64,000 nucleotides of DNA from an uncultured virus (IMG/VR IMGVR_UViG_2861330777_000001) (lineage: Duplodnaviria > Heunggongvirae > Uroviricota > Caudoviricetes), in IMG/VR virus record IMGVR_UViG_2861330777_000001. One strand, given 5' to 3'. The notes beneath the pieces were generated by a model, which saw only the letters and a program-made list of their open reading frames with translations, had not been told where the DNA came from and did not search any database. Position numbers and translations under genes: made by a program. Numbering within the stretch: position 1 is the first letter of the stretch; every line of letters starts with the position of its first letter. Positions 1 through 63,665 of the stretch are shown here, in pieces.

Positions 1-2622
1 CTACGCTAGTAACGATTCAACTTCCGTCCAATGGCGCCCATACATTCGCGAGTGGCGTTTCGTTAAGAACGAGTTGTCATACTGCGGTAACCTTTCGGAC
101 GGTGGCGCGAGGCCCTTCAGCAAGAAAGCGTTCTGCCTTCGCCCACCAAATCGCGCTAGGAATATCGCATGATAGGCTTCCGTTTGCAGCGCCAGCTCAA
201 CGTCAAAGTTCGGCTTTAGCTGCGCTTCTAACTTTTCGAACACCTTCCGATTGTCGTTCGCGAAAAGGAACCAATTGATCCCGCCGCTAATTAAATCGTT
301 GTCTAAGTCGTATTTCAGCAAGTCGAAATGGTGGAACGCGAATATGCCCGCTAATCGCCACTTCGGTCCCTCCAGTACAATCCGTTGCATAAGCGCTTTT
401 AGTCCTGGCGTTAAGTATTGGTGAGGCTCGTTGAACACTATAAACGCGCTGCCTTCCGCTGGATCCATTAGAAGCTTCGTCATAAATATTTTAAGCGTCA
501 CCCAATGTATTAACGTTTTCGCCGACAATGCGCCGAGCTTACGATTCGGCACGCGAATAATGACGACCTTCCCTTCACGTATCCACTTCTCGAAATCAAT
601 CTCCGGCTTCGGTGCCTGCGCAAATATGCGGAATAAAGTATCGTCGCCGAGCATTTCGTCAAGCCGATTTAGGATTGCGCTGGCCTTACCGTCCAGAGTC
701 TTTTGACCATCGCGCAACACCTTCGGATTTCCTTTCGCATCTAGTCCGTATTCTGAAAGGTATTTTTCGAGGAAATGCGCCGTACGTACGTGACCGCCTT
801 TATGCAACTCCTTCGCCCTTTCTGCGCGAAACTCTTCGTCTTCCAACAGCCTCTTTATTTCGAACAAACTCCCGCCACTGGCTTTCGCGAACTCCCGCAG
901 AATAGAACGCGACTGCCCCATCGATTCCATATCGCCGAAGAAGTCGATTAGCTCCTGCGCAAAACGGTTTGTGCCGTTCGTGCCGAGCCGTTCGATAATT
1001 TCCGTCAAGTCCATCGGTACAGGGTAATCCGTGTCGCTTAGATCGAGGTCGATAATCTTATCCGCCGGCAAAGAGTCGCGCACGCCGTCCGCAAAGCCGC
1101 GCTCGCCATCTTCCATGATAGCGTCTATTACGAACGTAGCGATTCCGTGATTCAAGCACGCTTCGATCACAAGGTTTTTCGCCAATGTGTCTTTACCCAT
1201 ACGCGGAGCCCCAACGAGTCCGTAACTACGGAAAGTTTCGTCGAGGTTACTTGTCGGAATACATATCGGATGCTGGACGCCCTTCACTTCGCTATGCCCG
1301 ACTAAAACCCCGTTGCTTTTCGATTTGACCGCCTTAGGCTCTTCCTCCACCGAACGTATATTATTACTTCCGATATTCAACGTAATTCCACCTAACAGCA
1401 CGCCAGCCTTCGTCTCTTTATGTACAAGTACCGAAGGCACATCCGACTCAGCTTTTCGATTTACCGCGAGCTCTTCTTCGTATTTCTGCTGCACGGAAGA
1501 TGTCGGCAACATTAGCGCTACTTTCGCCAGTTCGTCGCAAGATAGTAACGAAACATCTCCGTCAGCTTTCGTACGATTAGATAGATGCAGCGTATTTAAT
1601 TCCGACACTACTTCCGCCTTGCGTGCTTTGATTCGAATCTTAGCCGGCCTTAATTCGTTATCGCCAGCTATTTCGCTGAACGCACTGCTTAACGTATTGG
1701 CGACGAGATTGCCGCGAAGCTTTTCGTCTGTAACCGTAGCCACGCGAATATGTGTCTTCCATACCGGCTGGTTGATTTTATTGGCGCTACGGTCGGAGAG
1801 GCGCGTTATATTCAGCTCGTCAAGCAACGCTGATTTTCGGTCGATGGCGGGCTTCTTTTCGTACACCTTTTCCGACTTAAAGAACGTATTGCTGACGGCA
1901 TTCAGCGTGTCGTTAAGCACGTCGTAAATCTCATTAAAGAACGTAATCAAGCCTCCTTTTAGCGCATTTCCTGCCTTGTCAGCCGTTAGTTTTGCGCGCT
2001 GAGGAACTTTACCCTTCGCAAGCTTTTCGTGCGCCCATGAGGCATTCTTCGCCCATTTAGCGCGGCTATAAACCTCGGAAATAACGGACAGCCTTGCGAA
2101 ATCTCCATCGTCGGATATATCGTCTAGTGCCGTAAGTATCGAAGCGATCGGCGAAGTCTGCTCCGTTTGATTCGTATGCATCGAAAATATGTCGTGACGG
2201 GCTAGGCGGAGTTCTTGCAAGGTCAGCTCGCCAGTTTGCGGGATTTCAAGCGCTTCGACTCCGACTTCCTCAACGGTCACACGCATATAGTTTTCGAGGA
2301 TTTCGCGAAACTTCTTCGCCCATAGCTCCGACGTACTTACGTAGAACTCGACCGTCTTTTTGCCGTCTGCACGGCGGAATACTACGTCGAACCAAATGGC
2401 GTCCTTTTCGCGATAAATAAAACGGAAACCACCTTCCGATTTGCTGAGTCGCGCCGGCAAACCTTCGTAAATTTCGTACATCTTATGAAGCACGCGCCAC
2501 ATTTTCGCATTGCCGTTGTTCGTAACCGAGATGTGTGGCGTAATGCGAAACGTCTTCATTTCGTTTTTCTGCAGTGCGAAGTAATCCGAAAGCTTAATTG
2601 CGTGCAACTTCCGATTGAACAT
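1..2622 (-). CDS. VirD4/TraG/HerA-like P-loop ATPase (about 873 aa)
   Basis: Walker A-like GAPRMGKD and Walker B-like FIVFNEPHQ; start moved to ATG 2622 behind GTAGGAGGT; TAG stop at 1-3. Confidence 0.7.
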   Translation of the reverse strand: MFNRKLHAIKLSDYFALQKNEMKTFRITPHISVTNNGNAKMWRVLHKMYEIYEGLPARLSKSEGGFRFIYREKDAIWFDVVFRRADGKKTVEFYVSTSELWAKKFREILENYMRVTVEEVGVEALEIPQTGELTLQELRLARHDIFSMHTNQTEQTSPIASILTALDDISDDGDFARLSVISEVYSRAKWAKNASWAHEKLAKGKVPQRAKLTADKAGNALKGGLITFFNEIYDVLNDTLNAVSNTFFKSEKVYEKKPAIDRKSALLDELNITRLSDRSANKINQPVWKTHIRVATVTDEKLRGNLVANTLSSAFSEIAGDNELRPAKIRIKARKAEVVSELNTLHLSNRTKADGDVSLLSCDELAKVALMLPTSSVQQKYEEELAVNRKAESDVPSVLVHKETKAGVLLGGITLNIGSNNIRSVEEEPKAVKSKSNGVLVGHSEVKGVQHPICIPTSNLDETFRSYGLVGAPRMGKDTLAKNLVIEACLNHGIATFVIDAIMEDGERGFADGVRDSLPADKIIDLDLSDTDYPVPMDLTEIIERLGTNGTNRFAQELIDFFGDMESMGQSRSILREFAKASGGSLFEIKRLLEDEEFRAERAKELHKGGHVRTAHFLEKYLSEYGLDAKGNPKVLRDGQKTLDGKASAILNRLDEMLGDDTLFRIFAQAPKPEIDFEKWIREGKVVIIRVPNRKLGALSAKTLIHWVTLKIFMTKLLMDPAEGSAFIVFNEPHQYLTPGLKALMQRIVLEGPKWRLAGIFAFHHFDLLKYDLDNDLISGGINWFLFANDNRKVFEKLEAQLKPNFDVELALQTEAYHAIFLARFGGRRQNAFLLKGLAPPSERLPQYDNSFLTKRHSRMYGRHWTEVESLLA

Positions 2623-2633
2623 ACGCCCACCTC

Positions 2634-3284
2634 CTACGAATTTGCGTTGATAATCCACACGATAACGCCCGTCATGCAGACGCTCCACCAGCCGAGCCAC
2701 TTGCCCGCCCTGCCTGTAACCATAATCAAAACGCCCACTGCAATCGTAAGAAATCCACCTATTTCCGGCATGGTTGCGGTTATTGCGTTTAGACCATCGT
2801 GAAGCATATCGACGAATGGATTAACGATAACTTCGACTTGCTTTCCGATGACCCAGTCCGCGAAATTGTTATACTGTTCGAGGAACCAATTTCCGCCACC
2901 TCCGCTGACCGCCGACACTTGTTCCGCAACAGGAGACGGATCAATCCACGCGCCAGCTCCGTCTTTCATAGCGTAGTGTAGATGCGGACCCGTCGAGTGG
3001 CCCGTATTTCCGCTCAAACCGATTACGTCGCCGGCGTGAAGCTTATCGCCAACCTTTACGCTAACATTGCTCATATGGCCGTAAATCGAAGTAGTCCCGT
3101 CCTGGTTAAGAATCTCAACGCCTTTGCCGAGGTTTTTTCCGCCGAAGTTCATAACCCTTTCGACAGTCCCGTCAGTAATCGTCCGTAGCGTGGTACCTTC
3201 GGGCATGGCGAAATCAATGCCGCGATGCACATGTCCGCGCACTTCCGATAATTCTCCGTAAGGACTTGTAATACGAAATTTCAT
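2634..3284 (-). CDS. M23 metallopeptidase with C-terminal membrane segments
   Basis: HRGID, YGHM and STGPHLH motifs; hydrophobic C-terminus. Confidence 0.9.
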   Translation of the reverse strand: MKFRITSPYGELSEVRGHVHRGIDFAMPEGTTLRTITDGTVERVMNFGGKNLGKGVEILNQDGTTSIYGHMSNVSVKVGDKLHAGDVIGLSGNTGHSTGPHLHYAMKDGAGAWIDPSPVAEQVSAVSGGGGNWFLEQYNNFADWVIGKQVEVIVNPFVDMLHDGLNAITATMPEIGGFLTIAVGVLIMVTGRAGKWLGWWSVCMTGVIVWIINANS

Positions 3285-14173: not shown

Positions 14174-15514
14174 TCACAATCCCGACACCTCTTGTTCTAA
14201 AATATTCTCAATGTTATCAAACTCGTAGTATGGTATCCTTACGAGTTTAATACCTTTTCTTAAACAATACGTCGTTTTTATTTCATCTAACACTTTTCTC
14301 TTTCGGAAAGCTTCGTGCCCTCCAAAGAATTTAATCGGTTTAAAATGCTGTTCACCGTCGAACTCAATCAAACATTTAATATTGCTGTCACCATTTAACA
14401 CACAGAAGTCAAAGGGGAGGGGTTTGATATGTCTACAATCGTCAAACTTATATTGCTTGTGAAACTTTATATCTTTAGATTTTAGATAATCTTCAACCCT
14501 ACTTTCTCCGTGAGTAGTATTAGCCCCGCAAGATGGACATTTAATGCCCCGCAATAAGGAAGTAGCACTCCTAGAGAACTCTGTTCCACAATCAGTACAC
14601 TTAGCTGTGATTAGTTTAAACGCGCCTACATACTCGCTTACTATCGCTATGCTACCAGAGTACTTTTCCTCAATCTGTTCGACAAAAATACCATGTGGTT
14701 TTGTTTGTGATTCTACACGTTTCTTAAATGAGCAGGCGGTACAAGGTACTTCTCTAGTATTGAAGTCATAGGGCAACTTATCAAACCTTTCTCCGCAAAC
14801 TACGTGCAGATATGTTACGTGTTCGTTTGAGTTATTATAATTAGATAAAACGAGATATTCTCCATTAGTATTTTCTACAACCTCACGTTTATATGACCCC
14901 GAATCGACTACGCCTTGCGCACATTTAGGACAAGCGTATTTCGCGTTTATTATCGTATATGGTTTAGTAAAGAAATTAAAGCCGTGCTTTTGGCATCTAA
15001 ATTCGGTATTCGTTAAACTATCTACATACTTAGTTACAACTAAAATATTTCCGTTAAATTTCTCCTTAATTTCTAGTGCGAAATCCTCGCGAGATTTTCT
15101 CCTCTTAATGCCCCCTGCTATTAACGCACATTTTGGACAACGTTTACCGTTTACAAAGTTACTGGGTCTAACTTTATATTCGTGACCGCAAACTATGTGT
15201 TTTATGTCAATTGACTTGAACATCCCTTCGTACTGTGAACGAAGTTCATACTCACCTTTCGATAAATCGGCGAAAGATTTTAAAAATACAACTTCGTGGT
15301 TTTTAACGCGAGTCTTTGCGGCGTTGTAACATTCAGGGCATTTCTGTCCTCTACTTTTAATCTTATCGGGAGTAGCCTCGTAGATATTACCGCAAGAATG
15401 CTTAATTCTTACTTTTGTTTTAGCGCTGACATACTCAGTTAGTACTTCATAGCCTTCGCCAAGTATTTCCGATACCTCTTTTATAAATTCCTCGTTTGTT
15501 TTACGTACCGCCAC
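14174..15514 (-). CDS. Free-standing homing-type endonuclease: zinc-ribbon repeats plus Vsr/PD-(D/E)XK-like domain
   Basis: Repeated HxxCG...CPxC units; C-terminal PFDF...IEFDGEQHF...VRIPY; AT-rich. Confidence 0.75.
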   Translation of the reverse strand: MAVRKTNEEFIKEVSEILGEGYEVLTEYVSAKTKVRIKHSCGNIYEATPDKIKSRGQKCPECYNAAKTRVKNHEVVFLKSFADLSKGEYELRSQYEGMFKSIDIKHIVCGHEYKVRPSNFVNGKRCPKCALIAGGIKRRKSREDFALEIKEKFNGNILVVTKYVDSLTNTEFRCQKHGFNFFTKPYTIINAKYACPKCAQGVVDSGSYKREVVENTNGEYLVLSNYNNSNEHVTYLHVVCGERFDKLPYDFNTREVPCTACSFKKRVESQTKPHGIFVEQIEEKYSGSIAIVSEYVGAFKLITAKCTDCGTEFSRSATSLLRGIKCPSCGANTTHGESRVEDYLKSKDIKFHKQYKFDDCRHIKPLPFDFCVLNGDSNIKCLIEFDGEQHFKPIKFFGGHEAFRKRKVLDEIKTTYCLRKGIKLVRIPYYEFDNIENILEQEVSGL

Positions 15515-15698
15515 CGTAATTCCTCCCCTTAGTTTCGTCAGACTTTCGTTAAAACGGATTAATTCAGCCGCTATATCGAGCGACCGACGTATTAAAGGGC
15601 GTTTTTAAAATTCACCCTACTATATAAGCCGCGTGAGTTCGGATTTCCGCGCACCCACTATACAATAGGCATGAACTAACAAATTCGCGCAGTTTACG

Positions 15699-34049: not shown

Positions 34050-34281
34050 CCGCTACCTCCTTGATATGCTTATACCCGACCGTAATTTGACGATTGTAGA
34101 AAATCGCGTAGAAGTAAATTTCGAATCCCACGTGCGTAATCGGCTTATCGTACCCATTAGCGCAAACCTGCTTCGGCTCTTTCGCAAAGCCCCCGGAAAA
34201 TGAGAAACCGCCGAACGACGGAAACTTTTCGTAATTTAAAATGACGCCACTTTTCGGATAAATAAAATCTTCGTCCATCAT
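34036..34281 (-). CDS. Hypothetical protein
   Basis: RBS GAGGAGG; TAATG coupling. Confidence 0.65.
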   Translation of the reverse strand: MMDEDFIYPKSGVILNYEKFPSFGGFSFSGGFAKEPKQVCANGYDKPITHVGFEIYFYAIFYNRQITVGYKHIKEVADDGL

Positions 34282-34673
34282 TACGCCTCCTCTTTCGTAT
34301 TTGTAACCGCATACCCTTCGCCATGCCCCGCCCAATAGTAGAAAATTTCCGCTATCTTTTCTATCGCATTATCTACGTAAATATCAATCGCCTGCTGCGA
34401 AACTCCCATCGACGCCCCTGCGTCCTTTTGCGTCAAATCCTCCTCGTAAACCAGACGCAACGCCTGACGCTGCCTAACCGTCAGGCCCGCCCGTTCGATT
34501 GCCGCCGCCAGGTCGGTTAGTATATCTACCGCTGAATAATCGCCTTGATATTGCCGGCCGAGCAGCGCGTGATAATCGCCGAGCAGGAGCCGAACGCCCT
34601 CCGGATTGTCCAAGGCGTAACGCTCCGATAAACGTCGATCGCCTGCGTGTATGTCGTATTTAACTGCGCCCAT
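34281..34673 (-). CDS. Sigma-70 region 4-type HTH protein, candidate late regulator
   Basis: LTVRQRQALRLVYEEDLTQKDAGASMGVSQQAI. Confidence 0.8.
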   Translation of the reverse strand: MGAVKYDIHAGDRRLSERYALDNPEGVRLLLGDYHALLGRQYQGDYSAVDILTDLAAAIERAGLTVRQRQALRLVYEEDLTQKDAGASMGVSQQAIDIYVDNAIEKIAEIFYYWAGHGEGYAVTNTKEEA

Positions 34674-35314
34674 TAGTTCGCCTCCTCTTCGCAAATCTCC
34701 ACAATATGCCGACATAACTCATCCGGAATCCTACTACGCTCCATCGCATTCTTGCGCCCTTGTGTGCCTGTTTTCGAGCCCCGCGGTGCTGCTTCGTGAC
34801 AAGGCGCGCCGTTCTTACACATTGGCCGGAATGCTGGCGCCGGGTGATTCGTCCACAAATCTGTCGGCTTCATGCGGTCATCGCCGTACTGACAATACGT
34901 AACTGTGTGCCGCGGACGGTCCGCCATAAACCGCATCTTCCGCATACCTCCGCGCGGATTCTCGATAAAGTAGTATTTCGGAGCCAGATCGTCGATAAGT
35001 CGCAGCATATTCGCATTTACTTCGTCACAGAATTTCGCGTAGTCACTTTTCGGCGCCAGATTGCCGTCTGGTTCGCGTGTCCGGTGGTGCGAAATAGCCG
35101 CGATGGAATACGATGTGCAGTCCGGGCTAGCCCATATTACGTCAGGCTTGCCGAACCTTTCGAGAATGACTTCCGCCGTAATCTTGCCGATGTCCGCGTA
35201 CCAATCGATATCTCCGTGTTTTTCGTCCCATTCGACGCTGTATACTTCGTGACCAGCCGCTTCAAACGCCTTGCCAATACTCCGTGTGCCGGCGAATAAT
35301 TCGAGTATTTTAAT
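34673..35314 (-). CDS. DNA cytosine-5 methyltransferase-like protein (213 aa), probable ATT start
   Basis: Frame open upstream of the track ORF: IKILELFAGTRS (motif I), WASPDC (IV), IENP (VI); AGGGGAGG 8 nt before ATT. Confidence 0.85.
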   Translation of the reverse strand: MKILELFAGTRSIGKAFEAAGHEVYSVEWDEKHGDIDWYADIGKITAEVILERFGKPDVIWASPDCTSYSIAAISHHRTREPDGNLAPKSDYAKFCDEVNANMLRLIDDLAPKYYFIENPRGGMRKMRFMADRPRHTVTYCQYGDDRMKPTDLWTNHPAPAFRPMCKNGAPCHEAAPRGSKTGTQGRKNAMERSRIPDELCRHIVEICEEEAN

Positions 35315-35387
35315 AAAGAACGCCTCCCCTTGCTATTTTCGTTACTATTTCGTATACTATTCGTAAAAAAGAACGGAGCTGTCCGCC

Positions 35388-35801
35388 ATGCCTGATAAAG
35401 AAACGCCCGACTTCGCCTGGATTTCGTACTCGACCACGCTAGATGACGCATACATAACCGTTGATTCGCAGAAACGCCTTTACCTATCGTCGGCAGCATG
35501 GAAGAAGCTCGGATTGGCGCCCGAAGGTGCTGCGCTAATTATCGGACACGATCACGCCAACAAACGCTTAGTCGTAGCCAAGCCGGAAGTCGTGCGCGCT
35601 GTTAACGTACGTCCATTCCGATTCGACCCCCGCCGATACTGCTCGGCCAAGCCGTTCATACGCGCGCTGGCGATTGCTGACGAGACACTGCCGCTTAGGT
35701 ACGAATTCCTCGGAAAAGATTTCGGCGCCTATGCTGAAGGAGCTTACACATTTGGCTTAGTCGGATTCGATGCGCCAGATGGCGGAATTAAGACGGAGTG
35801 A
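35388..35801 (+). CDS. Hypothetical protein inserted against the operon direction
   Basis: 137-aa ORF; promoter TTGCTA-N17-TATACT at 35330-35358; RBS GGAG. Confidence 0.75.
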   Translation: MPDKETPDFAWISYSTTLDDAYITVDSQKRLYLSSAAWKKLGLAPEGAALIIGHDHANKRLVVAKPEVVRAVNVRPFRFDPRRYCSAKPFIRALAIADETLPLRYEFLGKDFGAYAEGAYTFGLVGFDAPDGGIKTE

Positions 35802-36085
35802 TTACCTATTTCACTCCGCTTTTTTTTGCGTGCTTCTAGCAACGTAAGGATGGCGTAACCTGCCAAGTCACACAACGTATCCTCCACGCTTTCCCCGACG
35901 CTGTCTTGCGCCCCGCCGATAAGGTTATCTAAGCGCGACATTTTATCGTCCATGCGGATTAGGCCGCTCATTACGCCATACTTTGCGAACTGCTTGGCGA
36001 AACTGTCGCCATAGTCGCGGTTCTTACGGATTAATAACTCCTTAACTTCGTCACATATCTGTGCGATCCGTTCTTCCTGCGTCAT
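35744..36085 (-). CDS. DUF1599 / nucleotide-modification-associated domain protein
   Basis: KNRDYGDSF...RMDDKMSRL...ESVEDTLCDLAGYAIL. Confidence 0.85.
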   Translation of the reverse strand: MTQEERIAQICDEVKELLIRKNRDYGDSFAKQFAKYGVMSGLIRMDDKMSRLDNLIGGAQDSVGESVEDTLCDLAGYAILTLLEARKKKRSEIGNHSVLIPPSGASNPTKPNV

Positions 36086-36327
36086 TATTGACCGACCCCT
36101 TTCGTTCTTTCCGTTAGCATCGCAATATCTTCGAGCACAAACGCCATCTGCCATTCAAGTTTTCGGAGGCGTTCATCCGTATCGGCTTCGATGTATTTCG
36201 AGATGCCCGGCTTCGAGATAAGTACGTACGTTTCGCCGGATTCTACGTCGGTGCCCGTAACAGAAAGCCCTCCGTCGTGGCGGTCCTCAACCGAAATTTT
36301 CAACGTTAAGCCGTCGAGATCAGTCAT
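36085..36327 (-). CDS. Hypothetical protein
   Basis: Translationally coupled to neighbours. Confidence 0.65.
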   Translation of the reverse strand: MTDLDGLTLKISVEDRHDGGLSVTGTDVESGETYVLISKPGISKYIEADTDERLRKLEWQMAFVLEDIAMLTERTKGVGQ

Positions 36328-37187
36328 TGCCCCACGCCACCTTCCGCTAACAATTCCGAGATGTCGCGCAGTATCTCTTCCGCAGACTTGCTCGGCTTGT
36401 CGGCTGGCTTACCGACGATTGCGTCAATAAACTTATACTCTAGCTCTGCGATATCCTTCGAGTTACTCTCCGTTTGCTCAGCGAAAGTCTGCACGTTATT
36501 CTGCGTCATTCGCAACTGTTCCTCCGCCGAATTCTTGGCGCGAACCAACTCGCCGACTATTCGTTCTAGTTCCGATGTGCGACGCGCAAGGTTCGCCAGC
36601 ATGTCGAGGACGGCCGGTGAGCACTGCGTGGCGTCGACGGATGGGCCTTCCGCAAGGACCTCTTCGTGCCTATTTTCCGGTGTGCATTTCGCTAATAGAT
36701 CGGGCAGCGTGTAGGAATGCGGAGCTTCTTCGTCTGAGACCGGAATGAGTACGCGATACTTGGTGACATCTGTATCGATAAACCGCTCAACAATACCGCC
36801 ATCAAAGATTAAATCAGCATCAATACTACCGTCGTCAAAATCGTCGTTAACTGTACATGTGCCGATAGTGCCGACTTTTGAGGAATCCTACGTTTCAACA
36901 ATAATCACCTTCTCGCCAATTTCGGCTTTTCGATCGACTAGGCGATAACGTGTGCCGATGATTTGGACGATTTCGGTCGACTCGAGCGTGCGGTAACAAC
37001 CGTGCCTTAGACCATAGTAAGCATCGCCCAATGTGACTCCGATCTCACTTTGACGAAGGACTTTTCGAACATCATTCTTGTCTATTACGTAATCCCCAAC
37101 CTTAGCCTTCCGGTCAACCTCGACATATTCCCGTAAAACCCCGCCAATCGATTCGTCTGTGATCAAGTGCGTTTTAACTTCGCTCAC
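36324..37187 (-). pseudogene. 287-codon gene interrupted by one in-frame TAG (36890-36888)
   Basis: Track ORFs 36888-37187 and 36324-36602 share a frame and the 95 codons between them are open. Confidence 0.75.
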
Positions 37188-40080: not shown

Positions 40081-40215
40081 CCGTAATTCCTCCTTTTGGG
40101 CGCCGACCTATTCGGTAGAATGATGACGCCCTTACGTATTATGCCGCGCAAGAATCGGGTTTCGCGCAGCTGCTTACTATATATGTCGCGGGAGCAAGCC
40201 GTTCCGCGCAGATTC

Positions 40216-50971: not shown

Positions 50972-51120
50972 CCGGATTAAATCCCGCGCCCCGTCGTAAA
51001 GTACGAATCTCTATGTTCGAAACTACGTCAGCGTTAAGCCCTGGAGGTTTTATAACGTAGCGACTCGATTTACTTAACGAACATCTTCGTACTCTCCGAC
51101 GGAGGCAGGCGAGTTAACCG
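50972..51120 (-). ncRNA. Structured RNA leader upstream of the SSB-like gene
   Basis: Four nested complementary blocks plus one crossing pairing (see findings). Confidence 0.55.
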
Positions 51121-51215
51121 CGCCACTTCCGTATTACTTGCGTTATTTCTTCGCTAAACATGACCGCAAGCAGTCCGATTTGCATAATTGTACCGAATAT
51201 CAACGTTGTTAACAC
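51114..51215 (-). CDS. 33-aa membrane peptide
   Basis: GTG start overlapping the upstream stop; MLTTLIFGTIMQIGLLAVMFSEEITQVIRKWRG. Confidence 0.5.
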   Translation of the reverse strand: MLTTLIFGTIMQIGLLAVMFSEEITQVIRKWRG

Positions 51216-51727
51216 TTCCCTGCCTCATGGATTAGGTAACCTCGTGAGTTAATCGCAGTATGGTTGTACTCGTCACGTTCACGCTCTAACGTTAAACCAA
51301 GTTCACTTATTGCCTCGGTCACTACGTCCAACTTCTTCTGTATCTTCGCTTTTATGGATGGTGATTTTGCTTTTAGTTGATTTAAAGTAAGCGTTGCTTG
51401 TTCAATAGTCGCTTCCGCTATCTTAATAGATAGTTCCCGCTCCTTCTTTTTTAACTCGCGTTCAGCCCTGCGTAATTCACGTTCAACAATCACAGAAATT
51501 TTCTTACCGAAAGGTAAATCTTCCGCGACCAAAATCGTAACAACTTCAGTCCCTTGTACCACAATTCTCTTACCTTTGTGGTCATAATATTGCTGTCCGC
51601 CTTGCGTTCCGAGTAATCTAGCGTTCATTAATAGTTGATTAAACCAATTTTCGGCGTGCTCCGAACTAATTCCGAAACGTAGAAGCGCTCTATCAACTGC
51701 ATGGGGTCTTACTGTATATTTCTTCAT
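51209..51727 (-). CDS. Hypothetical protein (HAxxR motif plus coiled coil)
   Basis: PHAVDRALLRFG N-terminus. Confidence 0.75.
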   Translation of the reverse strand: MKKYTVRPHAVDRALLRFGISSEHAENWFNQLLMNARLLGTQGGQQYYDHKGKRIVVQGTEVVTILVAEDLPFGKKISVIVERELRRAERELKKKERELSIKIAEATIEQATLTLNQLKAKSPSIKAKIQKKLDVVTEAISELGLTLERERDEYNHTAINSRGYLIHEAGKC

Positions 51728-51879
51728 CCGAGCCGCACCACCTTAACTCCGCCGATCCTTACGTTATTTGGTGCTATTCCCGTTTCATTGCGAATCGGGT
51801 CGTGCAGATAGCGATTTAATTTTCGCAGAAAAGGTGTTTGATTTCCGGTAGTTCGGGCAGACTGTTTACTAGGCTTCAT
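51724..51879 (-). CDS. 51-aa hypothetical protein
   Basis: RBS CGGAGGT; ATGA coupling with the downstream gene. Confidence 0.6.
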   Translation of the reverse strand: MKPSKQSARTTGNQTPFLRKLNRYLHDPIRNETGIAPNNVRIGGVKVVRLG

Positions 51880-52051
51880 CGTAATTACCTCCGTAAGGTT
51901 GATTATTTTTCGAAATTGTCGTAGAATAACATTCGTGTCGGCTGTCGTTTATAGTCGATACAAAACGTATAGCATTTTATATACAAAACGAATATAATGA
52001 TAATAAGGGATCGCGTAAGACATATTGCCTATTTGCCTTACGCCCTTATCT

Positions 52052-52678
52052 TTAAAGCGCAACTAAATAGTCGCGGTAATCTCCGTGCTGTTTAGAATTA
52101 AATTTGCCCGCCAGGCGATTTAATGTGCGTAATACTTTCGAATGGTGAACTCCTAATTCCTTCGCGATTGCCGTCGCTGTTGGTTTCGGATGTTCGAGGA
52201 ACGCTTTAACGATTGCCGTCGTTACTTCGTCCGCCCCATTCAGTAAGGAGTCGATCAGCGCCAACTGATCGGCTTTTTTCTTTGCGGTTACGTGCGCTTC
52301 GAGGTTGAATTCATCAGCGATTTCGAATCGTGAGGTTGCCGCCTCGTCATCGGTTGCTGATTCGTAAACTTCGAAGCTTCGTCGTTTGGTAAGTTTTCTT
52401 AGTAGCGAATTGTATCGTCTGGTAAGCTTCAAGTGAAACAATTTTACAAAATCTCCGCCGTTTACTGTGATATCGTTTACCGCACTTATGAATCCGTCAT
52501 CGAACAACTCTAACATATCGTGCTCATTTGCCATCGATGTAGATTTACTCCAGTAATCGAGTTTCGGTCGATATTCTGCCAGTAAATCGCGATATAACTT
52601 CGATAGTATGCCTTCACCCTTTTCGTCGATATATTTCTCTACTAGGTTATTAATATTTAGTTTTTTAAGTTCGTTCAT
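52052..52678 (-). CDS. Phage sigma-factor-like protein
   Basis: Region 2-like helical N-half and C-terminal HTH TAIAKELGVHHSKVLRTLNRL; 208 aa. Confidence 0.65.
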   Translation of the reverse strand: MNELKKLNINNLVEKYIDEKGEGILSKLYRDLLAEYRPKLDYWSKSTSMANEHDMLELFDDGFISAVNDITVNGGDFVKLFHLKLTRRYNSLLRKLTKRRSFEVYESATDDEAATSRFEIADEFNLEAHVTAKKKADQLALIDSLLNGADEVTTAIVKAFLEHPKPTATAIAKELGVHHSKVLRTLNRLAGKFNSKQHGDYRDYLVAL

Positions 52679-52700
52679 GTTATCTCCCCCTTGTACTAAC

Positions 52701-52729
52701 TATGTCGCACGAGTTTATACTTTCGCGCA
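52701..52729 (-). promoter_or_regulatory. Phage-specific promoter-like motif, one of six copies (others 15625-15653, 40140-40168, 40182-40210, 63574-63602, 63634-63662)
   Basis: TGCGCG-N10-CT-N3-GCGRCWTA with invariant spacing. Confidence 0.8.
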
Positions 52730-52852
52730 ATTTTTATTAACTTTTCTTTTGGTTGTCTCGTCGGCTTATCCATAATATAGCATGACCAATAGGAAAATAT
52801 TTGAAAGTAAACAAACTTTCAATTCTGATATTTTGTTTACTTTAGTGAACAT

Positions 52853-52880
52853 AAAAAAAAGACAACCACTTCGGGCTGCC
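52853..52880 (-). terminator. Intrinsic terminator after the aimP-like gene
   Basis: GGCAGCC-CGAAGT-GGTTGTC followed by T8. Confidence 0.8.
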
Positions 52881-52907
52881 GCATCCACATTATTCAATTA
52901 CTTAGGC

Positions 52908-53021
52908 TTAGCCTCCAACCTTTTCAGCTGCTGTTGAGATCCCACCATCACCGTTGCTATGCGCTATTGGATTTATAACTATTGTCGATACGAGCAAAAC
53001 ACCTAATAAAATTTTCTTCAA
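52908..53021 (-). CDS. aimP: Arbitrium pre-peptide MKKILLGVLLVSTIVINPIAHSNGDGGISTAAEKVGG
   Basis: Signal-peptide-like N-terminus, C-terminal hexapeptide ending GG, overlaps the aimR 3' end, RBS AAAGGGG; absent from ORF track. Confidence 0.85.
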   Translation of the reverse strand: MKKILLGVLLVSTIVINPIAHSNGDGGISTAAEKVGG

Positions 53022-54174
53022 ATTCAACATCCCCTTTAGTTTCGATTTTGAAATCAATAAATTCCTCGAGCATCTCAGATCTATCCCCTAATTTACGTAT
53101 CTCTCTTGCTGCTAAACTAGCGAAAAAGTAATTGGACTGTTTGAAAAACGATTTTCTGCATTCGTGCAATTTTTCCGTAGTATTTCTTGCTATCGCTCCA
53201 AGTAGTACTAAAATATCCTCCTCGCCTTGTTTAAATATTGCCTCCTTTATTAGTTTTAGTTCGAATTCACTCCCTTTATTACTCTGTAATCTTTGAAGTA
53301 TCGGGTCCGAATCTGCATCTAGTTGAACGTTCAAATAAAGTTTTGCGAAGTCTAGGTCCCGCCGAGCGTTTTCTTCTATATCTTTCTCGCCGAGTGTTTT
53401 GGAGATTTCATATCTAGCTTGAAGATAGTTGATGCTTTTAACTTCATCTTCTGGCAAGTATGTCATCCCTAATATATATGTCGCACCAGCAACAGTTTTC
53501 GCGCACATATCCGCAGAAATTATTCTGGTTGCGTAATATCGTGCAGAGTCAATATCGTTCAAGTGAAGGCTAACGTGTCCTAAAACTTCTGCAATTCTAT
53601 GTAAATAGCACTCTTTGATGAACAAGCGTCTTTCTCCGAACTTATTAATAGAAGCTTCCGCCTCTTTGCCTGTTTCTAACATTAAGTGGTACTTTTCTAC
53701 GTAATAGTAGTTGTAGCATTTGATAATATTGGCTAAAATAGCTAACTCTCCTTTTAACTGTCCGACTTTTTCTAGCCTCCAAATTAAATCCTTCGCTCCG
53801 ATTTCATTTGTATAAAAATCATATAAGATGGAATATACAGAAACGTACTTACCCATTATATCCTTCTCGCCGCGATACTTCTCGATTAATTCCCTAAGTA
53901 GTTCTATATTTCGTGTTACTGAGGCATATTCGAAACTTTGTTTTATGGATTCAGTTGTATTTAACCGTAAACACCAAGATGACATAACTTCTTGTTGATT
54001 TTTAGGAAAAAGTATAAATGATAGTCTTAATAATTTGCGAAAACTAATCCCACCGTCATTTATGAAATTCGAGAGTTCTTGCCTATCACACCCTATAAAG
54101 TCAGCGACTTTACTTATGGTTAAATGATCATTATCCTCAATGATGTTGCCGATTTCTTTATGGAGCTTCTGCAT
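52957..54174 (-). CDS. aimR: AimR-like RRNPP peptide receptor (HTH plus TPR)
   Basis: N-terminal XRE-like HTH, IKQSFEYA motif, TPR-like helices, 405 aa, followed by a secreted peptide gene. Confidence 0.85.
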   Translation of the reverse strand: MQKLHKEIGNIIEDNDHLTISKVADFIGCDRQELSNFINDGGISFRKLLRLSFILFPKNQQEVMSSWCLRLNTTESIKQSFEYASVTRNIELLRELIEKYRGEKDIMGKYVSVYSILYDFYTNEIGAKDLIWRLEKVGQLKGELAILANIIKCYNYYYVEKYHLMLETGKEAEASINKFGERRLFIKECYLHRIAEVLGHVSLHLNDIDSARYYATRIISADMCAKTVAGATYILGMTYLPEDEVKSINYLQARYEISKTLGEKDIEENARRDLDFAKLYLNVQLDADSDPILQRLQSNKGSEFELKLIKEAIFKQGEEDILVLLGAIARNTTEKLHECRKSFFKQSNYFFASLAAREIRKLGDRSEMLEEFIDFKIETKGDVEFEENFIRCFARIDNSYKSNSA

Positions 54175-54245
54175 AGTAATTTCCCCTTTCCATAAATACG
54201 TATAGATTTTCCATTAATTTCTGTTATAATTGAATTGTATCATAA

Positions 54246-54265
54246 ATGTTCACTTAGGTGTACAT
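54246..54265. promoter_or_regulatory. Palindromic operator ATGTTCAC-N4-GTGTACAT (related copy at 52833-52852)
   Basis: Lies just downstream of extended -10 TGTTATAAT (54222-54230). Confidence 0.6.
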
Positions 54266-54279
54266 AAATTTAGAAGGAT

Positions 54280-54492
54280 GTGGAAATTATGATAGACTTT
54301 TCTCCTCTTCGTAAGACTTTAGAAGAAAAAGACATGGTAATTAGTGACATGAGGGACGATGTTCTTCACCCGAAAACCATCGCGCAAATCAACCGTAATG
54401 GCGACGTCAACCTAAGCACCATCGAAAAGATCTGCGTTCATCTAAACGTACCTATAGAAAAAGTCGTCCGCATCGTTCCAGACGACAAATAA
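54280..54492 (+). CDS. XRE/Cro-like HTH regulator
   Basis: DFSPLRKTL...VNLSTIEKICVHLNVPIEKVV. Confidence 0.88.
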   Translation: MEIMIDFSPLRKTLEEKDMVISDMRDDVLHPKTIAQINRNGDVNLSTIEKICVHLNVPIEKVVRIVPDDK

Positions 54493-54504
54493 TATCGCAA
54501 TGAG

Positions 54505-54735
54505 GTGAGCGCCACGACTTCCGTAGTCGCACGGTGTTTACTTCGAGATTTACGTGAATCTCGTGGCCTGACGCAGCAGCAACTCGCCGATCGCGTCGGC
54601 ATGTCGAAATCCACCATTTCCGGCTACGAAAATTTACGTAATATCATGCTTGTCACTACCGCAAAAGTCATCGCCGACGAACTCAGATGTCGTATCGATG
54701 ACCTATACGAATGGCTCGAAGTAGACCACCGTTAA
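54505..54735 (+). CDS. XRE HTH regulator
   Basis: LRESRGLTQQQLADRVGMSKSTISGYEN. Confidence 0.88.
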   Translation: MSATTSVVARCLLRDLRESRGLTQQQLADRVGMSKSTISGYENLRNIMLVTTAKVIADELRCRIDDLYEWLEVDHR

Positions 54736-54755
54736 TCGAACGGGTAAGAAATGCG

Positions 54756-55784
54756 TCACTTACCCCGGAGCGAGGTACGTAAATTCGCGTACAAACCGGT
54801 GCTTAACTTCGCAAGGGCCGCCGCTTCCCTCAACGATTCCACTCCGTATTTCACTAACGCCTCGTTGGCGTCCTTGACGGAAAAACCGCCGTCAGCTGTC
54901 TTCGCGCCTACATACGCCTGCCTAACGCGCACATACCCGCGCAGCTCTCGCTCAACTTCTTCCCGCAACTTTTCGCCAGCCTTATCGTTGTCCGTTGCGA
55001 TGATCAGTTCTTCGATCGGTGACCGGATAATCAAGTCGCGTTTCGTCCGATTAAATGCTACGCCACCAACCGCAACCGAAGCGAAGCCGGCCGTCAGCCA
55101 CGACAGCCCGTCAATCTCCGCCTCGCAAAGTACCGCCGTTTTGGCGCCCAGCTTCCGGACCACATCGAGTCCCCATACTAGTTCGCGGATTGGAGTGGCG
55201 CCGGATTCGTACCAAAACAACTTTCCCCAGATTTTCCGATATTTTACATTCGCTAGTTTACCAGAGGCCGTTCTCCACGGCAATATTGCGGCGGATTGTT
55301 TTTCGTGGTAATAAACGCCAGCCATCCGTTGCGCCTCGTCGGAAATCCCCCGCCCTCGCAGATATTCGCAAGGGCCGGCTTGGTATTGCGCCAACAAGTC
55401 TTCGTTCAGCGCTTGCCTATTGCGCTGATTCATTCGCAAATTGACGGGACCCAACGTAAGTTGCTCGTAAGGGCTGGCGTAAGTTATGCCGTAAGTGCCA
55501 AGCAGATATTCTTCCGCCTCTTCGTACGATTCGTTTCGCAGGAACGCCATTAATTTAACGAAGTTGCCGCTTCGCCATTCCTCGTCGTAGGCTCCAGAAT
55601 CTCCCCATACGCCCGCTCGTTCGCCGGACAAGTTGACGAAGAATGATGGCGTATGGTCGTAGCGAAACGGGCTGGCTGCGATTAGTTTGTCGCCGGTCCA
55701 GCGTGGGCGAGTCCATTCGAAGGCCCGCAGTTCTTCTTCTACGTCAATGTCCGCGTCTTGACCGCGAATTCTTACGCTTACCAA
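54756..55784 (-). CDS. DNA primase (TOPRIM)
   Basis: SPFRYDHTPSF, LCEAEIDGLS, TDNDKAG and KDANE motifs. Confidence 0.9.
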   Translation of the reverse strand: MVSVRIRGQDADIDVEEELRAFEWTRPRWTGDKLIAASPFRYDHTPSFFVNLSGERAGVWGDSGAYDEEWRSGNFVKLMAFLRNESYEEAEEYLLGTYGITYASPYEQLTLGPVNLRMNQRNRQALNEDLLAQYQAGPCEYLRGRGISDEAQRMAGVYYHEKQSAAILPWRTASGKLANVKYRKIWGKLFWYESGATPIRELVWGLDVVRKLGAKTAVLCEAEIDGLSWLTAGFASVAVGGVAFNRTKRDLIIRSPIEELIIATDNDKAGEKLREEVERELRGYVRVRQAYVGAKTADGGFSVKDANEALVKYGVESLREAAALAKLSTGLYANLRTSLRGK

Positions 55785-55897
55785 TAGTTATCGCCTCCTA
55801 TATTACAATTATATTACAATTCTGTAAAGATATAAGTTGTTAAATTATCGCAATATATGGAAATTTTATGACAGCCGCCAATTTGTCGCAAATAACT

Positions 55898-57238
55898 TCA
55901 AAATCCGAACTGTGCCGCCGCTGCCTCGCCCTTCGGAAATTCCGCCAGCACTCCGTAGTCGAACAGCGCAATCAGTTCCAACGTAAAATCCTCGCCACCG
56001 TTCCGCCCCTTCTCGATACCAAGCATCGCGATCCCGTCCTTTTCGAGACTATCGAAGCTGATTAAGTTCGTCGCAATATCGAGCAGCCGCTTCGATGTTT
56101 TTACCTGGTCGCGCGTCGGTAAGTTCAATTCGCGTACGCCATCTTCGCCAGTCTGTTTCTTTTCAACGGTCGCCTGCACCGTATAGAATCCGACTACATC
56201 GTTATCGCCGATTATCTGCTCGAAGCGAGTCGCGGCATACTCCGCCGATCCACCCGCTGTTTTGTTGACGTTCTTGCCGTAAACGTCAGATAGTCCGTAA
56301 AATGGATCGATAATTACTGCGTCGACTTGCCCCGTCAGCAGTTCTCGCTCCAAATCGTCCAGCGTTCTCGTTAGCTCTCCGCCACTTTTCCCTTGGAAAT
56401 AGAGTTTGCCGGGATAATACGAATCTAGCGTTTCAAGCACGGCAAGGAACTGCTCGCGAACAATATCCTCTAAGTTGCCGCTTAGTATCTGTTTGTTCGG
56501 TAGTCCTAATTTCCGGCCAAGCTCGTCGACCAACAATTCGTCGACTGCCGTTGCTGTCGAAATCAATCGCGATATCCACACGTATTCCTTGACCTCGAAG
56601 GATTTGACGAGCACGTTCGCACCTTGTCGCAATAATGAATCGGCGATCTTAACGTTAACATACGTTTTACCGCGACCCGACTCAGCCATGATTCCGTATA
56701 CGTCACCGCTAAACCAGCCGCCAATTTCCTTCGTCAGCGATTCGAACGGTGTTTGCCAGCATTTAAACGACTTCCCTTCTTCGCGCTTTAAATACTCCGA
56801 TTTGAACGAGGTCTTTATGTCCTCCAACGTTCGCCCTATTTCCGAACGTACGTTTGTATCCATTTTAATCTTTTCAGCTTCCGAAATCAAGCTTTCGAGG
56901 ATTTTATTTCCGTCGGCTTCCGAATCGAATTCCGCAGTGAATTTTCCTTGCACATACTCCGCCAACCGTTGCTTTGCGCTGTACGCTTTGATTTGCTTCG
57001 TAAGCAATTCGTATGAGTCTGAAATCATCGGTGTGTACTCGAACGCCGGACATTCGGCGGTGACAACGGCGTATGAAGGTGCTTGGCCTCGATTGGCTTC
57101 CGCATATGATTCGATGAAACGGAGGGTCTGCCTATCACCCTCCGTCGGTAGGTCTGCCGCTGTGATGCCGAAACGTGTTAGCGCCTGGACGTTGTTGTCA
57201 TCGATTATTTTACTGAGTAGTAAATTTCCGTAATGCAT
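55898..57238 (-). CDS. DnaB-like replicative helicase
   Basis: AESGRGKT, VIIDP and EKGRNG motifs. Confidence 0.92.
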   Translation of the reverse strand: MHYGNLLLSKIIDDNNVQALTRFGITAADLPTEGDRQTLRFIESYAEANRGQAPSYAVVTAECPAFEYTPMISDSYELLTKQIKAYSAKQRLAEYVQGKFTAEFDSEADGNKILESLISEAEKIKMDTNVRSEIGRTLEDIKTSFKSEYLKREEGKSFKCWQTPFESLTKEIGGWFSGDVYGIMAESGRGKTYVNVKIADSLLRQGANVLVKSFEVKEYVWISRLISTATAVDELLVDELGRKLGLPNKQILSGNLEDIVREQFLAVLETLDSYYPGKLYFQGKSGGELTRTLDDLERELLTGQVDAVIIDPFYGLSDVYGKNVNKTAGGSAEYAATRFEQIIGDNDVVGFYTVQATVEKKQTGEDGVRELNLPTRDQVKTSKRLLDIATNLISFDSLEKDGIAMLGIEKGRNGGEDFTLELIALFDYGVLAEFPKGEAAAAQFGF

Positions 57239-63516: not shown

Positions 63517-63665
63517 CGCCAAACCTCCTTTCAAGTAATTGAAGTCGCCCCTGCAAATATCGCCCTTAATGTATATGTCGCATCAGATAACGGCCTCGCG
63601 CACTTTTAGCGAAATTTATTCGACCTTACTTACTATGCCGCACGAGTTCGGAGTTTCGCGCACAC

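Follow-up and report, generated by a model that had tools for sequence, protein, structure and literature searches.

An arbitrium-type receptor, peptide and putative operator cassette upstream of a divergent sigma-like gene in a Bacillaceae prophage, and its possible role in gating a phage sigma factor

The virus record IMGVR_UViG_2861330777_000001 (IMG/VR; Caudoviricetes) supplies the 64,000-nucleotide (nt) stretch of DNA analysed here, hereafter the window, and the locus under discussion occupies its positions 52,052 to 54,174. The window covers nearly all of a prophage of ~67 kb, carried in a 5.03-Mb Bacillaceae genome of 58 contigs, and nearly every gene of this prophage lies on the minus strand. 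Read in that direction, the locus comprises a gene for an arbitrium peptide receptor (aimR), a pre-peptide gene overlapping it (aimP), an intrinsic terminator, a long inverted repeat, an extended -10 promoter element (P1), a copy of a phage-specific promoter motif (P2) and a gene for a divergent, sigma-like protein of 208 amino acids (aa) (Table 1). All of the features which an earlier, sequence-only reading had placed here were recovered at the same coordinates and on the minus strand, among them an open reading frame (ORF) at 53057..52908 whose product ends in ...STAAEKVGG, a perfect inverted repeat, and an extended -10 element with no good -35. That reading went on to propose that peptide-free AimR switches on the sigma-like gene.

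Table 1. Features of the locus and of related sites, in coordinates of the 64,000-nt window
Feature	Position	Strand	Remarks
Divergent sigma-70-family (group-4-like) protein, 208 aa; proposed arbitrium output	52052..52678	-	Probable assignment, from fold evidence
P2, motif GCGCGAAA-N12-GCGACATA	52701..52728	-	Directly upstream of 208-aa gene
P1, extended -10 TGCTATATT	52774..52782	-	21 nt after operator
Putative AimR operator	52804..52843	-	Core GTAAAC-N22-GTTTAC, within 12-bp arms with N16
O2, 18-bp palindrome TGTTCAC-TAAA-GTAAACA	52834..52851	-	Right after aimP terminator; overlaps distal AimR half-site
Intrinsic terminator after aimP	52853..52880	-	7-bp stem (52880..52861) and T8/U8
aimP, pre-peptide	52908..53021	-	37 aa from TTG at 53021; longest ORF starts at 53057
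aimR, arbitrium peptide receptor	52957..54174	-	405 aa; N-terminal helix-turn-helix (HTH) and TPR-like body
Motif copy within aimR coding sequence	53477..53504	-	456 nt upstream of aimP start
Candidate aimR promoter, extended -10 TGATACAAT	54234..54242	-	Read from sequence
O1, palindrome TGTTCAC-TTAG-GTGTACA	54247..54264	.	Between divergent aimR and HTH70 genes
HTH70, 70-aa Cro/C1-type HTH protein, divergent from aimR	54280..54492	+	Pfam HTH_26, E 1.3e-6
HTH76, 76-aa XRE-family HTH protein, candidate phage repressor	54505..54735	+	Pfam HTH_3, E 3e-14
Motif, two tandem copies	63574..63661	-	Upstream of replication operon (DnaD-like gene through primase)
Motif, two tandem copies	40140..40209	-	Upstream of PhoH and nucleotide-metabolism genes
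Motif copy	15625..15652	-	Upstream of HNH endonuclease gene, tail module; weaker tandem candidate at 15690
Second sigma-like gene, 144 aa	34281..34715	-	Sigma70_r4, E 3.8e-9; phrog_3512 'sigma factor'

The product of aimR is an AimR-family receptor. It matches Pfam PF22871 with an E-value of 1.5e-31 and 110 bits (cut-off 26.7), NCBIfam NF038310 (lysogeny_AimR) at 246 bits (cut-off 70) and phrog_1728 with an E-value of 3.9e-82, and within the phage collection searched its closest counterparts are the AimR proteins of Wbeta-like phages, at 40-46% identity. The likely start of aimP is the TTG at 53021 (MKKILLG...), nine nt after a GGGG Shine-Dalgarno sequence. This start is favoured because of that spacing and because an ATG stands at the equivalent place in a relative, L007 (loci of relatives carry numbers of this form). 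Counted from the TTG, aimP overlaps the 3' end of aimR by 65 nt, and overlaps of the same type in Wbeta and Tavor_SA indicate that this arrangement is normal in this AimR clade. The N-terminus of the deduced product is basic and hydrophobic, resembling a signal peptide, and its C-terminus is AEKVGG. A short pre-peptide gene with a putative C-terminal signal, whose secretion and processing are predicted, is thus found directly downstream of aimR.

The aimP products of relatives end in SEKVGG, SDKVGG, PEKVGG, IKPGG or TRPGG. Three of them hold a duplicated unit of six residues within one pro-peptide (A-SEKVGG...Y-SEKVGG in L008, A-SDKVGG...F-SDKVGG in L011 and A-SDKVGG...Y-SDKVGG in L049), and since six residues is the longest unit repeated in these, the hexapeptide AEKVGG is our best prediction of the mature signal. 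Tandemly duplicated RRNPPA pro-peptides are the subject of PMC11343458. Neither AEKVGG nor SEKVGG, PEKVGG, SDKVGG or EKVGG occurs in the literature library searched.

Beyond aimP and its terminator lies the perfect 12-bp inverted repeat AAAGTAAACAAA-N16-TTTGTTTACTTT, with arms at 52804-52815 and 52832-52843. It is the sole perfect inverted repeat of at least 12 bp with a gap of 40 nt or less in the window. Across 200 dinucleotide shuffles, such repeats averaged 0.23 per 64 kb and at least one arose in 32 of the shuffles; a chance origin is not negligible window-wide but is small for an intergenic stretch of 230 nt, and relatives have kept the repeat. Its core within this AimR clade takes the form GTAnAC-N22-GTnTAC, with compensating changes in relatives and an unconserved interior. 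A second AimR clade (L009, L025) carries AAGTTT-N22-AAACTT, with identical geometry and at an identical distance from the extended -10. The variable fourth base of the half-site changes on both arms together and tracks the predicted recognition helix of AimR: QELS is paired with GTAAAC/GTTTAC, KDDMS (L008) with GTAGAC/GCCTAC, and KQCMS with GTAyAC/GTGTAC. Taken as an RNA hairpin, the repeat folds at -12.1 kcal/mol here, but relatives keep the outer arms only; a DNA site is the better reading because the 22-nt interior is neither conserved nor self-complementary in those relatives. In sequence, the two inverted boxes beyond aimP, with their unusually long spacer, fit an AimR operator.

The extended -10 of P1 has AAATAT at its expected -35 position. 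Exactly 21 nt separate TACTTT from the TG of the extended -10 in every one of the 21 distinct relatives of this AimR clade for which an operator match exists, whereas the T-run of the terminator stands anywhere from 12 to 37 nt ahead of the operator. An extended -10 is likewise retained at a similar place in distant AimR clades. The phage Wbeta has GTAAAC-N22-ATTTAC followed by TATAAT at an equal distance, ahead of its 40-aa aimX, and this match is the strongest single argument that the repeat and P1 form an AimR-controlled output element of which the output gene alone differs. Class II activators sit near -42. With the -10 hexamer placed at -12 to -7, the proximal box of the operator is centred near -42, which, beside the fixed 21-nt spacing, favours activation at P1.

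The sequence-only reading had seen no credible aimX, and the comparison agrees: between operator and sigma start, no ORF of at least 15 codons with a 4-nt Shine-Dalgarno match occurs in 10 of 12 loci, and none is conserved. Two 25-aa ORFs considered as candidates (52773..52696 and 52814..52737) have no Shine-Dalgarno sequence and are unconserved. No small aimX gene of the SPbeta-like or extended type follows the operator, the next gene being the co-directional one for the 208-aa protein. Nor was a convergent HTH gene found downstream of the operator; the SPbeta markers sroDEF were not searched for.

The motif at P2 belongs to a set. Its full form, GCGCGRAA-N12-GCGRCATA-N5-TARGG, has seven sites on the gene-sense strand of the window (63661, 63601, 53504, 52728, 40209, 40167 and 15652), with weaker candidates at 15690 and 50989. 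The sequence-only reading had counted six sites. The shorter pattern GCGCG-N15-GCGNCWTA has seven matches in the 5.03-Mb genome, all of which are the prophage sites, while the reversed control has none; this confinement makes a host sigma an unlikely reader. The genome of L008 also gives seven matches, all on the prophage contig, that of L007 three, and those of L010 and L027 two each. Ahead of the sigma gene, a -35-like block of GCGCG or GTGCG is present family-wide, including in relatives without aimR. The intergenic gaps ahead of the terminase, portal and head genes hold no copy of the motif, and the pair at 15652/15690 in the tail module are its only copies in the structural region. The HNH/homing-endonuclease gene at that point (446 aa, 14174-15514, minus strand) is situated between tail-chaperone and tape-measure-like genes. 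This bipartite motif is, then, prophage-confined and appears to co-vary between sites within each lineage; the 208-aa protein is its putative reader.

One copy of the motif, which the sequence-only reading did not report, falls inside aimR, spanning codons for C-A-K-T...A-T-Y. It is found at homologous codons in 17 of 18 aligned loci, the exception being L026. In the 16 loci compared, the downstream block of the internal copy matches the variant class of the same locus's P2: GCGACATA stands at both in this phage, L007 and L008, GCGTCATA in eight loci of the Bacillus cereus type, CGCCTATTATATAGTG in L012 and TTCTTATTATATAGTA in L025. Agreement in L011 and L040 is similar but less exact, and L009 even has GTCCGA as a variant upstream block at both copies. 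Where a variant has a single member (L009, L011, L012 and L025), the internal copy finds no better fit in the P2 of any other locus. No such element is present in aimR of Wbeta or Tavor_SA, where the encoded protein segment is homologous but a sigma gene of this kind is not the neighbour. An in-frame promoter co-evolving with P2 implies that one phage-specific factor would read both and that aimP transcription would be tied to that factor. These patterns suggest that the internal motif feeds aimP, tying signal production to output.

For the 208-aa protein, the case for a sigma factor is structural. An AlphaFold2 model (36 homologues; predicted local distance difference test, pLDDT, 79) was compared with known structures by Foldseek, and all 50 matches listed are sigma-factor entries, the best with an E-value of 8e-4. 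Residues 2-103 align to sigma domain 2 over 82-97 residues with a root-mean-square deviation (rmsd) of 2.4-3.6 and VIA Z of 8-9.4 (8.2-9.2 for SigW, sigmaE, CnrH and SigK), values of 8-9 being, by the structure aligner's own caution, reachable by chance for helical proteins. Residues 136-203 align to region 4 of SigA (Z 6.8, rmsd 3.1, 66 residues). Several homologues are named 'sigma-70 family' at NCBI, and others MarR or AsnC family. Judged on its modelled fold, the protein is probably a divergent, group-4-like sigma factor.

The pairing of receptor and sigma gene recurs well beyond this prophage. Relatives of the 208-aa protein are encoded at 86 collected loci, 69 of them on viral contigs and 17 in genomes; one was too short, which leaves 85 assessable. 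An AimR-family gene is located directly upstream of the sigma gene in 69 of the 85 (61 distinct sequences) and is lacking in 16; 67 of the 69 end 305-508 nt before the sigma start, the outliers standing at 852 and 2576 nt. These upstream receptors span several distant AimR clades, and all seven tested pass PF22871. Distant clades at one position imply that the cassette has been exchanged while its position was kept. Among the 16 loci without aimR are Paenibacillus genomes, and tblastn found a relative of HTH76 opposite the sigma gene in six of the 16, with none detected in the other ten. On the evidence of these loci, the backbone would consist of a primase, an opposite-strand repressor-like gene and the sigma gene, with an arbitrium cassette placed between the last two in the Bacillaceae. 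In the loci without aimR, which are of the Paenibacillus type (L016-L023, L084-L092), the sigma gene appears to take the 'cro' position, with a P2-type element, GTGTGCGAAA-N14-16-(T/A)ATAATAC, as its only visible promoter; in six of the 16 this element stands between the HTH76 relative and the sigma gene.

These observations lead us to favour, with moderate confidence, a reading in which an arbitrium front-end (AimR, AimP, terminator and long-spacer operator) has the phage's own early sigma factor, rather than aimX, as its output. Peptide-free AimR would bind GTAAAC-N22-GTTTAC (52843..52804), whereupon transcription would enter the 208-aa gene. By the most likely route, AimR would aid host RNA polymerase at the extended -10 of P1, which has no -35 and lies 21 nt downstream; suppression of the aimP terminator, nine nt ahead of the repeat, may be an additional or an alternative route. 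The sigma protein would then direct RNA polymerase to promoters of the GCGCGRAA-N12-GCGRCATA-N5-TARGG type: ahead of its own gene, where P2 would provide self-amplification, and ahead of the replication operon and the nucleotide-metabolism genes. Through the copy inside aimR, aimP would be made in proportion to lytic activity. Once imported, the peptide, predicted to be AEKVGG, would release AimR, and new infections would fail to fire the sigma loop and enter lysogeny. Genes, motifs, conservation, co-variation, spacing and a sigma-like fold are observed; from these we infer that AimR binds, what the peptide does, what reads the motif and which way the decision goes. For the sigma gene to lock itself on, as the sequence-only reading claims, the motif would have to be read by the 208-aa protein rather than by some other phage factor, an assumption as yet unproven. 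Its broader proposal, that AimR acts on the sigma gene, gains support from every test made, each of them comparative or structural: the AimR genes upstream in 69 of 85 loci, the long-spacer geometry and the co-variation of the operator, the 21-nt spacing, the Wbeta operator, the sigma fold and the prophage-only motif.

Several observations, given in this and the next two paragraphs together with the alternatives which draw on them, weigh against this interpretation. To begin with, P2 lies between P1 and the gene, and aimR-less relatives carry the P2-type promoter only; sigma expression could therefore be AimR-independent, and the sigma gene can evidently be started without AimR. Secondly, the same wiring might be operated by an AimR that is purely an anti-terminator at 52880..52853, with the box nine nt past the U-tract. 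Read-through transcripts would then start at the aimR-internal motif or the aimR promoter, and the extended -10 would be unrelated or constitutive. Such is the action of AimR in phi3T and SPbeta, the only arbitrium phages examined for it, where reporters, terminator suppressor mutants and box swaps show anti-termination and no promoter follows the box (PMC10769878). The order of aimP, terminator, box and output gene here equals the phi3T/SPbeta layout, and aimR contains a conserved promoter-like element ahead of aimP. The spacings tell against it, for it is the terminator-to-box distance that varies in relatives and the box-to-(-10) distance that is fixed, whereas function in phi3T was lost when the terminator-to-box distance was altered by +69 or -8 bp (PMC10769878). 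Further counts against it are the retention of the extended -10 in distant AimR clades and the modest terminator hairpin (-9.3 kcal/mol, z -1.0). Anti-termination alone is accordingly a serious rival but, on these sequence comparisons, an unlikely one; we favour activation at P1, and the two are not exclusive.

The identity of the factor reading the motif is open to a further challenge. The 208-aa protein has no Pfam sigma domain, Sigma70_r2 included, and shows only weak, generic HTH matches at region 4. Its only sequence match to a sigma profile, TIGR02937, is below threshold (E 7e-4, 19 bits against a cut-off of 42.9), and a profile search of Protein Data Bank (PDB) sequences gave no significant sigma match, the best hit (E 0.009) being to an unrelated protein. 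In several lineages, moreover, the downstream block of P2, 17 nt after GCGCGA, reads TATTAT, TTTAAT or TATAAT and so resembles a host-type -10. The 208-aa output might accordingly be a DNA-binding activator other than a sigma factor, recognising GCGCGA at -35 and leaving the -10 to the host's main sigma, an arrangement for which T4 MotA is a model; or, as a variant, the motif could be read by the 144-aa sigma-like protein (34715..34281), which has a true Sigma70_r4 match. We consider this alternative, in either form, improbable. The modelled fold comprises both a sigma domain 2 and a region 4, with the top fold matches listed all sigma-factor entries, and the TIGR02937 alignment, for all its low score, is full-length (residues 30-193 on profile positions 4-161 of 165). 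In every lineage, the motif stands ahead of early/middle genes and of the 208-aa gene rather than in the terminase, portal or head gaps adjoining the 144-aa gene, a distribution that fits an early/middle factor better than a late-adjoining one. The 144-aa protein, whose gene lies just upstream of methyltransferase and terminase genes, is probably the late-gene factor of a two-step cascade. A phage-encoded RNA polymerase was also considered as motif reader and rejected, in that the sole large unassigned ORF (899 aa, phrog_5156) matches VirD4-like ATPases/translocases.

A final complication comes from the small HTH proteins encoded opposite aimR. HTH70 is syntenic in most aimR-bearing relatives, and O1, one of two palindromes of the form TGTnnAC-N4-GTnnACA, covers the region just upstream of the candidate aimR extended -10 and downstream of a candidate extended -10 for HTH70. 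The O1 half-site goes with the type of HTH70 helix in all seven B. cereus-type loci read (GTAAAC with NARTIAN or NSRTIAN; GTACAC or GTGCAC with HSKTIAR). Loci without HTH70 (L009, L025 and L064) have no such palindrome in their regulatory regions, the only pattern match in L064 falling inside aimR. HTH70 is thus likely, from this co-variation, to repress aimR and itself. The AimR half-sites share the GTnnAC form with the palindromes that track HTH70, and O2 overlaps the distal half-site; HTH70 may compete with AimR there, and a second regulator probably acts at the AimR operator, which tempers a simple two-component picture. It is very improbable that the repeat is instead part of a three-half-site array (TGTTCAC, GTAAACA, TGTTTAC) through which HTH70 or HTH76 controls the sigma promoter while AimR acts elsewhere or via an unseen product, despite the shared half-site form, the overlapping palindrome and the co-variation of O1, for the two arms of the long repeat vary in step and track AimR (as with the KDDMS helix of L008), are constant across both HTH70 types of the B. 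cereus-type loci, differ between L040 and L008 although these share an HTH76 helix, have a 28-bp centre-to-centre distance that fits AimR and not a 70-aa Cro-type dimer, recur ahead of aimX in Wbeta, and have a 6-N22-6 counterpart at the same -10 distance in L009 and L025, which possess neither HTH70 nor the palindrome.

Of the known arbitrium systems, the closest AimR proteins in the collection searched are those of the extended systems (Wbeta, phi106, Waukesha92-like and BMBtp14-like phages), which have aimR-aimP-aimX with a convergent aimC and aimL, according to the preprint of Kabel et al. (2025; 10.1101/2025.11.23.689978). As here, aimP of Wbeta and Tavor_SA overlaps the 3' end of aimR; xxPGG is the C-terminus of the peptides of those two (EIKPGG, TIKPGG). 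The gene after the operator in those systems, however, encodes an antirepressor, AimX, of 29-80 aa and faces a convergent repressor gene, aimC, whereas in this prophage that place is taken by the co-directional gene for the 208-aa sigma-like protein, which has a phage-specific promoter of its own. The present locus differs further in having small HTH genes upstream of aimR and a promoter copy within it, which Wbeta aimR is without. That preprint reports that Wbeta AimX, AimC and the aimL promoter were tested in reporter assays; that, of ~9,300 AimR systems, ~75% are 'extended' and ~4% SPbeta-like, the rest being 'generic' or 'other'; and that three unrelated output mechanisms exist: SPbeta uses an RNA, phi3T a MazE-like peptide and the extended systems an antirepressor. 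The word 'sigma' is absent from this preprint (10.1101/2025.11.23.689978) and from PMC10075063.

SPbeta and phi3T, whose receptors belong to AimR clade 2, share with this locus the receptor, a terminator after aimP and, on the reading proposed here, a C-terminal peptide of six residues, a long-spacer operator and an output that promotes lysis. Their 6-N25-6 operators are known from footprinting, electrophoretic mobility shift assays and a crystal structure, and AimR tolerates spacers of 23-28 bp, according to PMC6458997. The boxes nevertheless differ (6-N25-6 as against 6-N22-6 here), as do the peptides, which end in RGA there (PMC13220667) and in VGG here. The output in these phages is AimX (a MazE-like peptide in phi3T, an RNA in SPbeta), and their AimR is an anti-terminator with no promoter after its box, in contrast to the conserved extended -10 at fixed spacing in the present family.

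An identical order of primase, two opposite-strand HTH genes, AimR and sigma is present in the B. subtilis phages 268TH002, 268TH007 and phi18-2 (ON210835, ON210834 and OR208547), where a gene annotated 'RNA polymerase sigma factor' precedes those for a single-stranded DNA-binding protein and DNA polymerase. The 268TH002-type locus has an aimP ending in AINAIGG, a terminator, a GAACA...TGTTC repeat and the extended -10 TGCTAATAT. Its sigma homologue is distant (34% identity over half its length), and its boxes and peptide differ. The genome announcement of 268TH002 (PMC9476937) does not mention arbitrium, AimR, sigma or lysogeny. As 268TH002 and 268TH007 are isolated B. subtilis phages, the architecture is open to direct tests in a standard laboratory host.

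Sigma cascades themselves are familiar from lytic phages such as SPO1, in which gp28 and gp33/34 redirect host RNA polymerase to phage promoters. We know of no peptide-signal input to cascades of this type, and their sigma proteins have no detectable sequence relation to the 208-aa protein. No description of AimR-gated sigma wiring was found in the literature searched, which did not extend to the survey defining the AimR clades and its supplements.

How the AimR/AimP signal becomes a lysis-lysogeny decision has been an open question since 2017. A sigma output, if confirmed, would link a peptide-gated trigger to an irreversible sigma loop and to signal production coupled to output, such that the signal would report lytic commitment. 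It would add a fourth arbitrium output to the three of Kabel et al., and a more direct one, with the signal gating the transcription machinery itself, as well as a natural example of a quorum-gated positive-feedback switch. Should the coupling through the aimR-internal promoter hold, it would change how the arbitrium signal should be modelled. More generally, aimR, aimP, terminator, operator and P1 may form a portable sensor whose output gene has been exchanged in evolution, and which in a large family of Bacillaceae phages of 55-70 kb (the contig sizes of the sigma-family relatives) gates a self-amplifying sigma factor that sets off early lytic expression and drives aimP from within aimR; we regard this generalisation as evenly poised between right and wrong. 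With 61 distinct receptor-bearing loci, the architecture is common by sequence.

The surroundings of the locus are those of a temperate phage. On the minus strand, replication genes run from 63534 down to a primase at 54756 and are followed by the aimR/208-aa locus, DNA polymerase, ribonucleotide reductase and nucleotide metabolism, the small sigma-like gene (34715..34281), and then terminase, head, contractile tail and lysis genes. An integrase gene is positioned just past the right edge of the window; the prophage is integrated in a DUF3900/DUF3898 gene, the 3' end of which is duplicated. By name, the 208-aa protein's closest homologues come from Peribacillus, Bacillus, Neobacillus and related genera, and a megablast of positions 51000-56000 against the phage collection returned no match. 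A search for LexA (Cheo) boxes gave three one-mismatch matches, all intragenic, where 3.6 were expected by chance.

Three further observations concern other parts of the window. The 899-aa protein, encoded at 1-2700 (minus strand) beyond the lysis cassette near the left prophage end, matches phrog_5156 with an E-value of 1.7e-209 and is related to proteins annotated as VirD4-like ATPases/translocases in many Bacillus phages, among them SPO1 gp27.4. Three plus-strand ORFs at 34760-36714 (179, 137 and 117 aa; one matches phrog_18159), just upstream of the small sigma-like gene, break the otherwise minus-strand run, and may be morons or genes expressed in lysogeny. Lastly, the word ACGAAAGTA recurs on the minus strand between genes, ahead of terS, the holin gene and further late genes (31083, 6235, 3699 and others), and CGAAAGTA occurs 14 times on the minus strand of the window and once on the plus strand; this ACGAAAGTA/CGAAAGTA word may be part of a late promoter.

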